In this document: positions 55,493 through 58,191 of the stretch, in pieces
How the letters are laid out: each line of letters begins with the position of its first letter
How positions within the stretch are numbered: the stretch's first letter is position 1
Source: Justusliebigvirus VEcB
Sequence record: OZ035773.1
Strand: one strand, 5' to 3'
DNA: 64,000 nt
Program-made: the position numbers and the translations under genes
Notes under the pieces: model-generated
Database searches by the model: none
Told to the model about the DNA's origin: nothing
The model's input: the letters and a program-made list of their open reading frames with translations, nothing else

Positions 55493-56386
55493 ATGAAAGT
55501 TAGTATTCTACATGGTGTTGACTGTTATGTTACTGATGTAGACGTTAAAGTCTTTACATTCTCTGGTGGAGAACAACATGTTCAACTAGATACGAATCTA
55601 TCAGGTTTCAATCATGCTACAGACAGAATCTTACTTACTTTAGAAGTAAGATCTGCTAAAGACTTGATGACTTTGGTTATGATTAAGAATGCATTGGACA
55701 ATATGCTATATCATAAACCATATTGTGTCGATTTGCTCATGTTGTATGTGCCATATGCACGACAAGACAGAGTGTGTGAGCCTGGGGAAGCATTCGGAGT
55801 TAAAGCCTTTGCTTCTATAATTAATTCATTAAATTTCTCACGTGTTATCGTTGCTGATCCACATAGTGATGTTACTCCAGCAGTGTTTGACAGACTCTGT
55901 GTAATACCTCAAGAAGAGATTGCTTACGAAACTTTAAAGTGGAAGTTACGTATGGAGAATTTTGCTCTTGTTAGTCCTGATGGTGGTGCTCTTAAGAAAA
56001 TATTTAAATTATCTAAGAAAATGTCTTTAGATGTGTTCTGTGCAGAGAAGGTTAGAGATACTGCAACAGGTGCTATTGTTCGTACAGACATTTCTGTACA
56101 GGATTTCAATAAGCGTAACCTGATGATCGTAGATGATATCTGTGACGGCGGTAGAACTTTTATTGAATTGGCTAAAGTGCTACGTGCTCGTAACGCAGGT
56201 AAGATTGAGTTATATGTTACACACGGTATCTTTTCTAAAGGTCTTAAAGAGTTAAGTGAGCACTTTGACTGCATTCATTCTCTTAATGTGTGGGAAGATA
56301 ACATCCAAGAAGATTCCGGTGTTCTTGTTAAGAATCAGTCAGATTTGCAACAACAAATTGTATCTCCATACGTGTGGAATTTTTAA
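55493..56386 (+). CDS. ribose-phosphate pyrophosphokinase-like protein (Prs/Adps-type)
   Basis: PRPP-binding loop LMIVDDICDGGRTF; Prs-like fold. Confidence 0.8.
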   Translation: MKVSILHGVDCYVTDVDVKVFTFSGGEQHVQLDTNLSGFNHATDRILLTLEVRSAKDLMTLVMIKNALDNMLYHKPYCVDLLMLYVPYARQDRVCEPGEAFGVKAFASIINSLNFSRVIVADPHSDVTPAVFDRLCVIPQEEIAYETLKWKLRMENFALVSPDGGALKKIFKLSKKMSLDVFCAEKVRDTATGAIVRTDISVQDFNKRNLMIVDDICDGGRTFIELAKVLRARNAGKIELYVTHGIFSKGLKELSEHFDCIHSLNVWEDNIQEDSGVLVKNQSDLQQQIVSPYVWNF

Positions 56387-56396
56387 ATAATAAGTG

Positions 56397-56431
56397 TTGA
56401 CAACAGGGAGTATGCTTAGTAAGATACTCCC
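56397..56431 (+). promoter_or_regulatory. sigma70-like promoter overlapping stem-loop
   Basis: TTGACA 56397-56402, TAAGAT 56420-56425; hairpin gggagtat...atactccc 56406-56431. Confidence 0.45.
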
Positions 56432-56457
56432 ACACTAACAAACAAGGAGACATAACT

Positions 56458-58191
56458 ATGAATATTTTTGCACCTTTTGCTACTGATTGGTATAAGCCTG
56501 GTCACAAGCAGATGTACAACCAAAATACAAAACTCATTTTCTCTAATTTAACTCCTCGTAATGATAAAAACTTTGCACACTATGCAGATCGTGAAGCACG
56601 TGGTGTGATTGTTTTAGGTATTCGTCGAGCAGTCACCGATGCTCTTGTAACTATGTGGGACAGCTTCTTTAAAATGTCTCGTAGTGCAGCAGTAAATAAA
56701 TTTTATCGTATGTCTAAAAATGCATTAGGTGCTTCTGCTCCTTCTGCTGAATGTTGGGGAGAATTGCACGATTTAGGTTATCTTCCGCTAGAAGTTCGAT
56801 CTTTGCCAGAAGGTGTTTTGTGTCCTATTGGTGTTCCTGTGTTTACTGTGCATAATACTTTAGAAAAATTCTTTTGGTTAACTAACTATGTGGAAACACT
56901 ATTGTCAGATGAAACTTGGAAGACAATGACTAATGCTACAGCAGCTTTTCAGTATAAGCGTATTGCTATGGCATATGCGATGGCAACGTGTGATAATATT
57001 GATCACGTTAACTTCCAGTGTCATGATTTTAGCCTACGTGGTTTAAGTAATATCGAAGATGGTTATAAGAGTGGTATCGCTCATTTGGCATCGTTCACAG
57101 GAACAGATAATATTCTGGCTATTGAAACTGTGCATGATTATTATGGTATTGATTATGATCAGTTTGTTGCAGGTTCTATTCCGGCAACAGAACATTCAGT
57201 AGCAACGACTAACATTGGAGCTATTGTTGAAGATCTGAAGAAACATTTCCCACATCTTAAAGATGATGTTGATGGGCTTCGTTATGTAGCAGAGAAAGAG
57301 TTTCTTCGCCGCTATATTGAAGAAATTGTTCCAGAAGGTTTTTGTTCATATGTAGCAGATTCTTATGATTACTGGGCTGTCTTGACTCGCATTCTGGTAG
57401 AATTGAAAGAGTCCATTATGTCACGAAATGGTCGTCTTGTTATTCGTCCAGATTCAGGAGATCCGGTTAAAGTTGTTGCAGGATACAATGTTGAATCTTT
57501 TGCTAACTATGAAGACCTTTTAAATAATGGTATTGCTACAGCCACTGAAGTAGTTCATTTGGCTGATGTTAATAAATATTACAATGTTCTTCAGGATTGC
57601 AGTGTTGCTGATTGTATTGATGAAACTTATGAGATTCCTTATTGTGAAGCAGTAGGTTCTATTCAAATCCTTTGGGAAGTGTTTGGTGGTACTATCAACC
57701 GAAAAGGCTACAAGGTTCTTGATCAGCACATCGGTATGATTTATGGTGATTCTATTACTGTTGAACGAGAACACGAGATCTTACGCCGACTGAAGAAGAA
57801 AGGTTTTGCAGCTTCCAATATTGTATTTGGTGTTGGTAGTTATACTTATCAGTTCAATACACGAGATACTTTTGGTTTTGCTGTTAAAGCAACAGGTAGT
57901 ATCATCGGTGAACACGAAATTTTGGTAAGTAAAGAGCCTAAAACTGATCCTGGTAAACGTTCTGCAAAAGGTTTTATTAAGGTTGTTAAGGATACAAACG
58001 GTAAACTTTCTCTTGTGGATAATCTTTCTTTTAAAGATATTCAAGATGAAGACAATGAGTTAAAAGTTATCTTCAGGGATGGTACGGTTATTACACCACA
58101 AGTAGAAGGACGTGATGAAACATTTACGGATATCCGCAACCGTGTTGATGTAGAGGTTCTTCGTACTATGGGAACCATCCAGGTTGACTAA
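56458..58191 (+). CDS. nadV: nicotinamide phosphoribosyltransferase-like protein (NampT/NadV/Namat-type)
   Basis: N-terminal FATDWYKPGHKQMY; 577 aa. Confidence 0.8.
   Translation: MNIFAPFATDWYKPGHKQMYNQNTKLIFSNLTPRNDKNFAHYADREARGVIVLGIRRAVTDALVTMWDSFFKMSRSAAVNKFYRMSKNALGASAPSAECWGELHDLGYLPLEVRSLPEGVLCPIGVPVFTVHNTLEKFFWLTNYVETLLSDETWKTMTNATAAFQYKRIAMAYAMATCDNIDHVNFQCHDFSLRGLSNIEDGYKSGIAHLASFTGTDNILAIETVHDYYGIDYDQFVAGSIPATEHSVATTNIGAIVEDLKKHFPHLKDDVDGLRYVAEKEFLRRYIEEIVPEGFCSYVADSYDYWAVLTRILVELKESIMSRNGRLVIRPDSGDPVKVVAGYNVESFANYEDLLNNGIATATEVVHLADVNKYYNVLQDCSVADCIDETYEIPYCEAVGSIQILWEVFGGTINRKGYKVLDQHIGMIYGDSITVEREHEILRRLKKKGFAASNIVFGVGSYTYQFNTRDTFGFAVKATGSIIGEHEILVSKEPKTDPGKRSAKGFIKVVKDTNGKLSLVDNLSFKDIQDEDNELKVIFRDGTVITPQVEGRDETFTDIRNRVDVEVLRTMGTIQVD

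Follow-up and report, generated by a model that had tools for sequence, protein, structure and literature searches.

The genes adps and namat very probably form the NARP1 (NAD+ reconstitution pathway 1) operon of a phi92-like Justusliebigvirus. They lie in the window, by which we mean the whole 64-kb stretch of DNA analyzed here, out of a genome of ~147 kb. The phage infects E. coli, and its nucleotide sequence is 99% identical to that of phage alia and 98.7% identical to that of phi92; the annotated alia genome was used as its twin. The first-pass annotation had read a Prs-like gene directly upstream of a Nampt-like gene as a phage NAD+ reconstitution pathway, and similarity searches, the PP loop of the first protein, the clamp motif of the second and the lack of an Nmnat gene in the window all support that reading. 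The pair is the NARP1 pathway that has already been described, and the earlier observation is correct and not new.

By homology to the systems of the phages Bas63, SpbetaL1, FADO and ICP1, we infer both the chemistry of the pair and its role against host defense. A defense NADase of the Sir2, TIR, SEFIR or DSR type would split NAD+ into ADP-ribose (ADPR) and nicotinamide. Adps would move the beta,gamma-pyrophosphate of ATP onto the 1'' hydroxyl of ADP-ribose, yielding ADPR-pyrophosphate (ADPR-PP), and Namat would join ADPR-PP and nicotinamide to give NAD+ directly, without an NMN intermediate or an adenylyltransferase.

The adps-namat locus

Both genes are intact open reading frames on the same strand, encoding proteins of 297 and 577 residues and separated by 71 bp (Table 1), exactly as they had been placed in the first pass. 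This close spacing of Adps and Namat genes within a phage genome is what defines a NARP1 operon. The pair is kept in 55 records. Tables S1 and S2 of Osterman et al. 2024 (doi 10.1101/2024.02.11.579819) already list the orthologues of phi92, alia and PaulScherrer (Bas60) as Adps homologues, with the flag 'Namat within 10 genes: Yes' and with their Namat labeled 'Adps-associated', a label that rests on a genome-wide search for Nmnat. The same study found NARP1 and NARP2 together in no phage. Our literature search for a biochemical or genetic test of any phi92-like phage returned none. Compared with alia, the ratio of synonymous to non-synonymous codon changes is 6:2 in adps and 18:1 in namat, and both genes are under purifying selection.

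Table 1. Positions of the genes, promoter-like elements and protein motifs of the locus within the window
Feature	Coordinates	Strand	Basis
Promoter-like element upstream of adps, TTGACT-17-TAGAGT	55425..55453	+	consensus scan; putative function
adps, putative ADP-ribose pyrophosphokinase, NARP1 step 1 (ADPR + ATP -> ADPR-PP + AMP)	55493..56386	+	ORF, family matches
Lys186 codon of Adps, equivalent to ICP1 Lys185	56048..56050	+	alignment mapping
Adps PP-loop region D214-F223, DDICDGGRTF, donor-site signature	56132..56161	+	alignment
Promoter-like element in the 71-bp spacer between adps and namat, TTGACA-17-TAAGAT	56397..56425	+	consensus scan
namat, putative nicotinamide ADP-ribose transferase, long form, NARP1 step 2 (ADPR-PP + nicotinamide -> NAD+ + PPi)	56458..58191	+	ORF, family matches
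Namat selectivity-clamp loop (SCL), residues about 35-49 (N-D-K37-N38-F39...)	56560..56604	+	alignments
Namat selectivity-clamp helix (SCH) motif G460-S-Y-T-Y-Q-F-N-T-R-D470	57835..57867	+	alignment

A promoter-like element had been proposed for each gene, and in both cases we recovered a sigma70-like consensus match. A very AT-rich stretch (about 55360-55424) precedes the element upstream of adps, and the sequence AAGGAG lies between each element and the start of its gene, at 55480-55485 for adps and at 56444-56449 for namat. The spacer element belongs to a motif family, TTGAC-N18-20-TAAGAT, with 5 copies in the window against 0.3 expected and at least 5 copies in none of 100 shuffles. Members of this family start at 56397, 58184 and 58605, and the element at 55425 is related to them. 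Sigma70-type promoters appear to drive both genes. The pair stands at the head of a block that runs rightward into small open reading frames and then into a tRNA cluster. We looked for accessory genes beside the operon and found no Macro or RyR domain in the open reading frames at 58263-58484, 58498-58608 and 58664-58930 or in six upstream frames on the minus strand; these flanking frames match only PHROGs of unknown function. Rfam and tandem-repeat scans gave nothing tied to the operon, and PADLOC returned no meaningful match for Adps, Namat or the Sir2-family protein encoded elsewhere in the window.

Specificity signatures of the two enzymes

Pfam, PHROG, NCBIfam and the RefSeq annotation name the two proteins as a Prs and a Nampt. 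Taken literally, these names describe a genuine PRPP synthetase and a genuine Nampt that make PRPP and, from it, NMN, with host NadR or PncC/NadD completing NAD+ and the pair boosting the general supply of NAD+ and nucleotides. We consider this improbable. The 297-aa protein does match PHROG 619 ('ribose-phosphate pyrophosphokinase', E 2e-91), TIGR01251 (E 3e-34) and Pfam Pribosyltran and Pribosyl_synth, and its 118 bits against TIGR01251 just pass the subfamily cut-off of 113 bits, which speaks for a PRPP synthetase. However, validated Adps proteins score 97-139 bits with the same model, and E. coli Prs scores 423. The 297-aa protein misses all Prs equivalog cut-offs by 200-480 bits (NF002320, 99 bits versus a cut-off of 297), whereas the E. 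coli enzyme scores 533 and 423 bits and passes. A canonical Prs combines a full-length match to equivalog or subfamily models with the ribose-5-phosphate loop DDMIDTGGT, and the 297-aa protein does not. It is 40.5% identical to ICP1 Adps (158 bits), 35.8% identical to Bas63 Adps (137 bits) and 27.6% identical to E. coli Prs (72 bits), and all 30 solved Prs sequences in the PDB score at most 59 bits. Judged by these alignments and models, the protein is closer to the validated Adps of ICP1 and Bas63 than to cellular Prs and falls outside the Prs equivalog models. FADO Adps scores 72-86 bits, no nearer than E. coli Prs, and for this reason similarity alone does not define the Adps clade. An AF2 model (pLDDT 92) has a PRPS-like fold with TM scores of 0.70-0.75; neither a sequence search nor a fold search of the PDB entries available found an Adps structure.

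The PP loop is of the Adps type, which argues against a genuine PRPP synthetase: its sequence is DDICDGGRTF in the window and in Bas63, DDICDGAASF in ICP1 and DDMIDTGGTL in E. coli Prs. Residues I216-F223, including I216, C217, G219 and F223, are kept in 115-120 of 120 homologues, and R221 is kept in 93. Counterparts of ICP1 F18, R87, H121, D161, K185, I194, D212, D213, I214, C215, D216, G217 and F221 are all present and nearly invariant across the 120 homologues. The catalytic lysine K186 and the acceptor residues R90, H124, D163, D214 and D215 are invariant in all 120 homologues, and the role assigned to Lys186 is based on the inactivity of the K185A mutant of ICP1 Adps (PMC13586617). Since these catalytic and acceptor residues are common to Prs, they would indicate an active enzyme rather than its specificity. 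Among the contacts to the adenine of ADPR, F23 and R90 are kept (ICP1 F18 and R87) and ICP1 F92 is replaced by Cys95, a position with Cys in 117 of the 120 homologues, Met in Bas63 and Val in E. coli Prs. An Adps would be expected to lack the C-terminal alpha11-alpha12 filament module of PRPS. The Prs model match ends at position 253 of 309, the protein has no counterpart of the RRxxNxE filament residues found in E. coli Prs, and its tail aligns with that of ICP1 Adps; one C-terminal helix, at 282-295, is nevertheless present in the AF2 model.

The 577-aa protein matches Pfam NAPRTase (E 2e-37), PHROG 448 (E 1e-187) and NF006629 (E 5e-138). It scores 397 bits against PDB 9w5x/9w5w, which we assigned to SpbetaL1 Namat by residue numbering, versus about 168 bits against human NAMPT. 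Bas63 Namat gives 400 bits and FADO Namat 374, compared with 137 for KVP40-type NadV, to which the identity is only 27-31%. NF006629 was rejected as a discriminator, being passed by both Namat and NadV; the clamp motif does separate them. The SCH motif is GSYTYQFNTRD in the window, GSYTYQYMTRD in Bas63 and GSFTYQYNTRD in FADO and fits the published Namat-only adenine-clamp signature, which KVP40-type NadV (GGGLLQQLDRD) lacks. For the SCL, PMC12774641 gives the rule that the third position is Arg, Lys or Tyr and that stacking is by this Arg or by the residue at the fourth position. The third residue here is K37, as expected. The fourth, N38, is non-aromatic (Bas63 has W, FADO and ICP1 have Y, and Quinn has H) and is followed by F39, which is kept in Bas63 and FADO; the loop exceeds that of SpbetaL1 by 6 residues. 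N38 and Cys95 of Adps are the two ligand contacts that depart from the structural references, a point against the NARP1 reading. In a phmmer alignment with 9w5x, the catalytic core (D10, Y12, F191, R194, the GTD Asp, the PATEHS His and RPDSGD) is identical to that of SpbetaL1, where the residues compared were D13, Y15, F189, R192, D215, the catalytic His, R306 and D308. We also considered the insertions in the protein as a novelty and rejected this, as the long form is shared with the validated Namat of Bas63; such long forms, of about 1.65-1.8 kb, occur commonly among Gram-negative myoviruses.

Namat enzymes retain conversion of PRPP to NMN in vitro, at about half the PRPP-dependent activity of human Nampt, and some synthesis of NMN would therefore be possible. 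Against a PRPP-based pathway stand the adenine clamp and the behavior of the homologous Bas63 operon, which rescues cells without host pncC or nadR and for which ADPR-PP was detected. The first-pass annotation had favored the ADPR-PP route over the NadV/Nmnat route, and the similarity scores, the PP loop, the SCH motif and the search for an Nmnat agree with this choice. Its caveat that specificity could not be decided from sequence alone was too cautious, because two structural papers (PMC12774641 and PMC13586617) supply sequence signatures. From raw sequence, the scan had picked out a real anti-defense module and had correctly told its pathway from a look-alike. Public annotations still mislabel Adps and Namat as 'ribose-phosphate pyrophosphokinase' and 'nicotinate phosphoribosyltransferase'.

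ADP-ribose-related genes and missing partners

The window encodes a CobB-like Sir2 at 19979-20791. The twin genomes encode two further proteins, an Adpp-like Macro protein and a NADAR protein, at sites beyond the window that are not linked to NARP1. The Macro protein (alia gp066) lies ~80 kb from NARP1 in a HAD-PRTase_3-Macro-TerC module, and its Macro domain (residues 88-238) shares 40% identity with the Macro protein encoded inside NARP1 of phage Quinn and 44% with the NARP1-linked copy of Pakpunavirus C11. The Quinn protein differs little from the validated Adpp of phage Gary. NARP1 could belong to a phage-encoded ADP-ribose economy with the CobB-like Sir2 and the NADAR hydrolase. It is also conceivable, though we think it unlikely, that phi92-like phages run a 'split' NARP1-AP in which the unlinked gp066 protein helps the NARP1 operon in trans. 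If gp066 dephosphorylates ADPR-1''-phosphate, aRES-type defense would be resisted as well, though operon-based surveys class these phages as plain NARP1.

The same genes bear on whether NARP1 chemistry might serve mainly to recycle nicotinamide and ADP-ribose from the phage's own NAD+-consuming enzymes, and not primarily to counter defense. Candidate sources exist in the Sir2, whose GAGxS, TTNVDD and HVHG motifs are intact, and in the ADP-ribose-releasing Macro and NADAR proteins of the twin genomes, and NARP1 yields NAD+ only when ADPR is available. However, sirtuin deacylases release O-acyl-ADPR rather than ADPR, so that an extra step would be needed, and 35 kb separates the Sir2 gene from NARP1, which lies on the other strand. 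Hundreds of phages carry NARP1 whether or not Sir2 is present, and the phenotype of NARP1 deletion in Bas63 and FADO is defense-specific. We therefore give recycling as the main role only a slim chance.

The earlier finding that the window lacks an Nmnat held when we scanned 75 further open reading frames of at least 90 aa and the 9 nearest small ones with Pfam: none had a CTP_transf_like/Nmnat, NadR, PnuC, Macro, Nudix or RyR domain. No Nmnat, NadR or PnuC product is annotated in the alia genome. NARP2 is defined by a NadV-clade Nampt with an Nmnat and without Adps; here Adps is present, and an Nmnat was found neither in the window nor in the twin genome. NARP1-AP has a Macro-domain ADPR-1''-phosphate phosphatase (Adpp) at most two genes from NARP1, and the scan found no Macro domain anywhere in the window. 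NARP3 pairs a PnuC-like transporter with a NadR-like bifunctional enzyme, and neither NMN_transporter nor NadR domains were found in the window or annotated in the twin. Other candidates were rejected. The alia gp038 'nucleotidyltransferase' has a weak PolyA_pol-head match and no cytidylyltransferase or Nmnat match; the gene upstream of KVP40-type nadV, considered as an Nmnat reference, gave a weak glycosyltransferase-9 match instead; and alia gp113, a possible second Prs (71 aa; 539-751 in the window), resembles neither Prs nor Adps, and on this comparison its label 'phosphoribosylpyrophosphate synthetase' is a propagated misannotation. A NARP2-like pathway, in which PRPP would be turned into NMN by the Nampt-like enzyme before an Nmnat encoded elsewhere in the phage completes NAD+, is the least probable reading: an Nmnat could in principle sit in the part of the genome beyond the window and gp038 carries a suggestive name, but gp038 fails as described, Nmnat is nowhere in the alia annotation, the genome-wide search of Osterman et al. 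classed the three relatives as Adps-associated with no dual-pathway phage, and the protein is distant from NadV, from which it also differs in having an aromatic clamp.

As NARP1 carriers, the phage and its therapeutic-candidate relatives would be predicted to escape NAD+-depleting defenses of the Sir2, TIR, DSR and SEFIR types, a prediction of modest practical value. Sensitivity to aRES would be expected to remain unless the unlinked Macro protein compensates.

Comparison with characterized systems

In the window, as in Bas63, FADO and ICP1, adps immediately precedes namat in the same orientation. NARP1 of Bas63 (JohannRWettstein; genes 79-80; Osterman et al. 2024) has this order in a phage of the same host species, with an identical PP loop, an SCH motif of the same type and a Namat that is also of the long form, with a large insertion after RPDSGDP. 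The identity is only 36% for Adps and 40% for Namat, and Bas63 is a Felixounavirus and belongs to a different phage family. Its spacer measures 45 bp, whereas that of the window measures 71 bp and contains a promoter-like element, and its SCL reads K-W-F in place of K-N-F. Bas63 NARP1 is known from experiment, and that of the window lineage is predicted from sequence.

The closest characterized Adps is that of Vibrio phage ICP1, for which structures are available (PMC13586617). Like the window protein, it has the catalytic lysine, the residues of the acceptor site and a PP loop with the core DDICDG, and the C-terminal tails are homologous (NQSDLQQ in the window, NQQDIQK in ICP1). The loops end differently (AAS in ICP1, GRT in the window), Glu225 replaces ICP1 F223 in addition to the change at Cys95, and the window protein is 17 residues longer. 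For Namat, the Bacillus phage SpbetaL1 enzyme (PMC12774641) has the same NAM/NMN-site residues, and its adenine-stacking SCH aromatics are kept as aromatics (F392 as Y462, Y396 as F466). The window protein differs by two insertions (about residues 254-280 and 343-399), the longer SCL, and the replacement of R40 by K37 and of A362 by S432.

NARP2 of KVP40 (NadV and NatV) shares the Nampt fold and the purpose of restoring NAD+ with the window pair. In contrast, its NadV has no aromatic clamp, prefers PRPP and requires an Nmnat, and NARP2 lacks Adps. Finally, the core Adps and Namat of NARP1-AP from Vibrio phage Gary (Adps-Adpp-Namat; doi 10.64898/2026.01.28.702374) are homologous to those of the window, and the window proteins are 42% (Adps) and 39% (Namat) identical to those of Quinn. 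Gary carries Adpp within the operon, whereas the adps-namat operon of the window has no Macro/Adpp gene inside or adjoining it.

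Gene pair, promoter-like elements and neighbouring genes

The first-pass annotation had placed a Prs-like gene directly upstream of a Nampt-like gene, and both were found as intact plus-strand ORFs at exactly those positions, with matches to the expected families. They are separated by a 71-bp spacer, and by tblastn the window has exactly one copy of either gene. The 297-aa protein matched PHROG 619 'ribose-phosphate pyrophosphokinase' (E 2e-91) and Pfam Pribosyltran and Pribosyl_synth, and the 577-aa protein matched PHROG 448 'nicotinamide phosphoribosyl transferase' (E 1e-187), Pfam NAPRTase (E 2e-37) and NF006629 (461 bits), a model that fails to tell Namat from NadV. 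Identity over the 3.5-kb region with the pair is 99.0% for Escherichia phage alia and 98.7% for phi92, and the region is kept in 55 phage records at 95-99% identity, which places the window within Justusliebigvirus (Stephanstirmvirinae). Codon differences from alia (6 synonymous and 2 non-synonymous in adps, 18 and 1 in namat) are consistent with maintained function of both genes.

Features of the window (basis or detail in the last column)
Feature	Position	Strand	Basis or detail
sigma70-like element TTGACT-17-TAGAGT	55425-55453		consensus match; upstream of adps, 3' of a very AT-rich stretch
sigma70-like element TTGACA-17-TAAGAT	56397-56425		consensus match; within the adps-namat spacer
TTGAC-N18-20-TAAGAT copies	2321; 35249 (-); 56397; 58184; 58605		motif scan of window
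Prs-like ORF (adps)	55493..56386	+	intact, 297 aa (ORF list)
Nampt-like ORF (namat)	56458..58191	+	intact, 577 aa (ORF list)
Namat insertion 1	57217-57297		residues ~254-280; vs SpbetaL1, FADO, ICP1 Namat
Namat insertion 2	57484-57654		residues ~343-399; vs SpbetaL1, FADO, ICP1 Namat
Terminator-like hairpin	55255-55268	-	GC-rich, with T-run
cREC_REC gene	53114-53488	-	124 aa; PF20274 E 1.9e-13
Phosphoesterase and T4 Rnl1-type RNA ligase	~51112-52597
16 tRNA genes	58938-62135	+	directly downstream of NARP1 block
HNH endonuclease ORF	60971-61336		inserted within tRNA cluster
tRNA-like match	59187-59265		Rfam, 38.6 bits; no ARAGORN call
RmlD, RmlC, RmlA, RmlB	32181-35442	-	Pfam E 1e-72 to 1e-82
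ORF-poor stretch	5812-7628		no ORF of at least 70 aa
Exact 18-bp tandem duplication	6734-6769		inside ORF-poor stretch
Sir2-family gene	19979-20791	-	270 aa; Pfam SIR2 E 1.7e-22

Each gene was also said to have its own promoter-like element, which is right as a pattern match, and AAGGAG lies 3' of each element, 7-8 nt before the ATG. Five copies of the motif TTGAC-N18-20-TAAGAT lie in the window, where 0.3 would be expected; three of them are within 56.4-58.7 kb, each before one of consecutive genes, which suggests a phage promoter family. No plus-strand terminator was predicted 3' of adps or of namat. We infer that the promoter-like elements are early promoters and that transcription of namat would come from read-through as well as from a promoter of its own. 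The terminator-like hairpin lies upstream of the first minus-strand gene, within the divergent intergenic region of 410 bp; transcripts of the minus strand are not expected to run through this site.

Genes of the window run on the plus strand to ~19.5 kb, on the minus strand from 19.7 to 55.1 kb (a DNA and nucleotide metabolism block) and on the plus strand again from 55.5 kb. The pair starts this last block and is followed by three small ORFs without assigned function and the tRNA genes. The cREC_REC ('cyclic-phosphate processing receiver') protein, hypothetical in alia (gp224), is encoded next to the phosphoesterase and RNA ligase genes, and the three probably form a cassette for RNA repair, which is 2 kb away from NARP1 and on the other strand. 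The dTDP-rhamnose set is complete; possible uses are sugar modification of DNA or host surface polysaccharide. The 2-kb composition window around the ORF-poor stretch (6001-8000) is AT-rich (GC 0.325).

Assignment of the two proteins to Adps and Namat

Characterised references were fetched, comprising Bas63 genes 79-80, ICP1 Adps, FADO NARP1, KVP40-species NadV and E. coli Prs. The 297-aa protein scored 158 bits against ICP1 Adps (40.5% identity) and 137 against Bas63 Adps, compared with 72 against E. coli Prs and at most 59 against each of 30 solved Prs sequences. Its score with the Prs model TIGR01251 was 118 bits (E 3e-34, cut-off 113); validated Adps proteins scored 97-139 and E. coli Prs 423 over its full length. 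Mapping of the functional residues published for ICP1 Adps (PMC13586617) showed that the 297-aa protein keeps the catalytic Lys (K186), all acceptor residues and the PP-loop core DDICDG, and the mapped positions are invariant or nearly so among the 120 closest homologues. The PP loop DDICDGGRTF is the same in Bas63 Adps, whereas E. coli Prs has DDMIDTGGTL; ICP1 Adps differs in having F92 where the 297-aa protein has Cys. In an AF2 model (pLDDT 92) the 297-aa protein adopts the PRPS fold; TM values against human, E. coli and archaeal PRPS are 0.70-0.75, at sequence identities of 17-24%. Loss of alpha11-alpha12 is a published Adps hallmark (PMC13586617); for the 297-aa protein, sequence and AF2 model bear it out only in part, since its C-terminus lacks the filament residues and has an ICP1-like tail, but one terminal helix is predicted.

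The 577-aa protein scored 397 bits against PDB 9w5x/9w5w and ~168 against human NAMPT. We identified these entries as SpbetaL1 Namat because their numbering reproduces the paper's G360-D361-A362 and G390...D400. Scores were 400 bits for Bas63 Namat and 374 for FADO Namat, and 137 for KVP40-type NadV, which has GGGLLQQLDRD where the 577-aa protein has the clamp motif GSYTYQFNTRD. The catalytic core is intact; in the clamp loop, position 3 is the expected Lys and position 4 is Asn, not aromatic, followed by Phe. The length of the protein is due to two insertions, with no Pfam domain detected in either. The second and larger insertion is shared with the validated Bas63 Namat, in which it is longer still, so that this insertion is no departure from functional NARP1. 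The Namat of ICP1 isolate 2017_Dha_P (L001:3910-5229), annotated as a 439-aa hypothetical protein, is without the N-terminal ~45 residues and has TCD in place of the clamp-motif TRD of other Namats; this namat may be degenerate.

Alternative pathways

The pathways NARP2 (NadV and Nmnat) and NARP3 (PnuC-like and NadR-like) both need enzymes beyond the pair. When 75 ORFs of the window with at least 90 aa, together with the nine closest small ORFs, were scanned with Pfam, none matched Nmnat, NadR, PnuC, Macro, Nudix or RyR, in agreement with the earlier failure to find an NMN adenylyltransferase. Nor is any such product named in the complete annotation of alia, the twin genome. Osterman et al. 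(doi 10.1101/2024.02.11.579819) annotated each Namat by an Adps or Nmnat homologue in the same genome, found no phage with both pathways, and list the Namats of phi92, alia and PaulScherrer as 'Adps-associated'. Hence, to the extent that sequence can decide, NARP2 and NARP3 are excluded. Reading the pair as it is annotated, as a true Prs plus a true Nampt, is contradicted by the sequence signatures of both proteins; for the homologous Bas63 operon it is also contradicted by the detection of ADPR-PP and by the fact that the operon needs neither host pncC nor nadR. The ADPR-pyrophosphate route, NARP1, had been favoured in the first-pass annotation, correctly in view of the Adps and Namat similarities and signatures and the lack of Nmnat.

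Two labels in alia were followed up separately. The 'nucleotidyltransferase' gp038 was rejected as an Nmnat by its domain match. The 71-aa ORF at 539-751 (+), gp113 'phosphoribosylpyrophosphate synthetase' in RefSeq, has no detectable Prs or Adps similarity, and by this comparison its label is a propagated misannotation.

Other ADP-ribose and NAD+ proteins and relation to known NARP1 systems

The Sir2-family protein, already labelled Sir2 in RefSeq, has E. coli CobB as its closest match (PDB 1s5p, E 1e-18); its NAD+-site motifs GAGxS, TTNVDD and HVHG are intact, no Cys4 zinc module is visible, and PADLOC gave no defence match. Thus, one genome encodes an NAD+-consuming enzyme and NARP1. Outside the window, alia encodes a NADAR-domain protein (gp103, L009:34217-34768 (+); PF08719 E 1.9e-36; annotated hypothetical), a further ADP-ribose-processing family in this lineage of twin genomes.

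Also outside the window, alia gp066 (L009:13853-14569 (-), record 55853-56569) is a 238-aa 'phosphatase' with a C-terminal Macro domain. Along its whole length this domain shares 40% identity (E 1e-36) with the Macro gene that Vibrio phage Quinn carries inside its NARP1; the Quinn gene appears in the list of the aRES paper and differs little from the validated Gary Adpp (doi 10.64898/2026.01.28.702374). Identity to the NARP1-linked copy of Pseudomonas phage C11 (Pakpunavirus; L012:3983-4462) is 44%. In alia, gp066 is unlinked to NARP1 and lies in a HAD - PRTase_3 (ComF-like) - Macro - TerC module, a module that Phapecoctavirus (L011) also has; 54 records carry gp066 with conservation of at least 95%. 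Across NARP1 and gp066, several records named 'Campylobacter phage' (MG065656, MG065639 and MG065662; host C. jejuni) share ~98% identity with this E. coli phage lineage; they are probably mislabelled or contaminant genomes. The aRES survey, in which phi92-like phages are not listed, covered only the two genes flanking NARP1 on each side (doi 10.64898/2026.01.28.702374), so an unlinked Macro copy would be missed. The Macro family is very broad (2,908 phage records, T4 Tk.4 among them), and a dedicated NARP1 role for gp066 is therefore only a possibility.

The adps-namat pair as NARP1 is already known; our literature search turned up no experimental work on phi92-like phages. The pathway was first described in 2024, with validation in Bas63, SpbetaL1 and FADO (Osterman et al.). 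Later work dissected it structurally (SpbetaL1 Namat; ICP1 Adps, PMC13586617) and added NARP1-AP and a coupling to RyDEP. Orthologues of the window's adps and namat are already in the supplementary tables of the first NARP1 paper (Osterman et al.).
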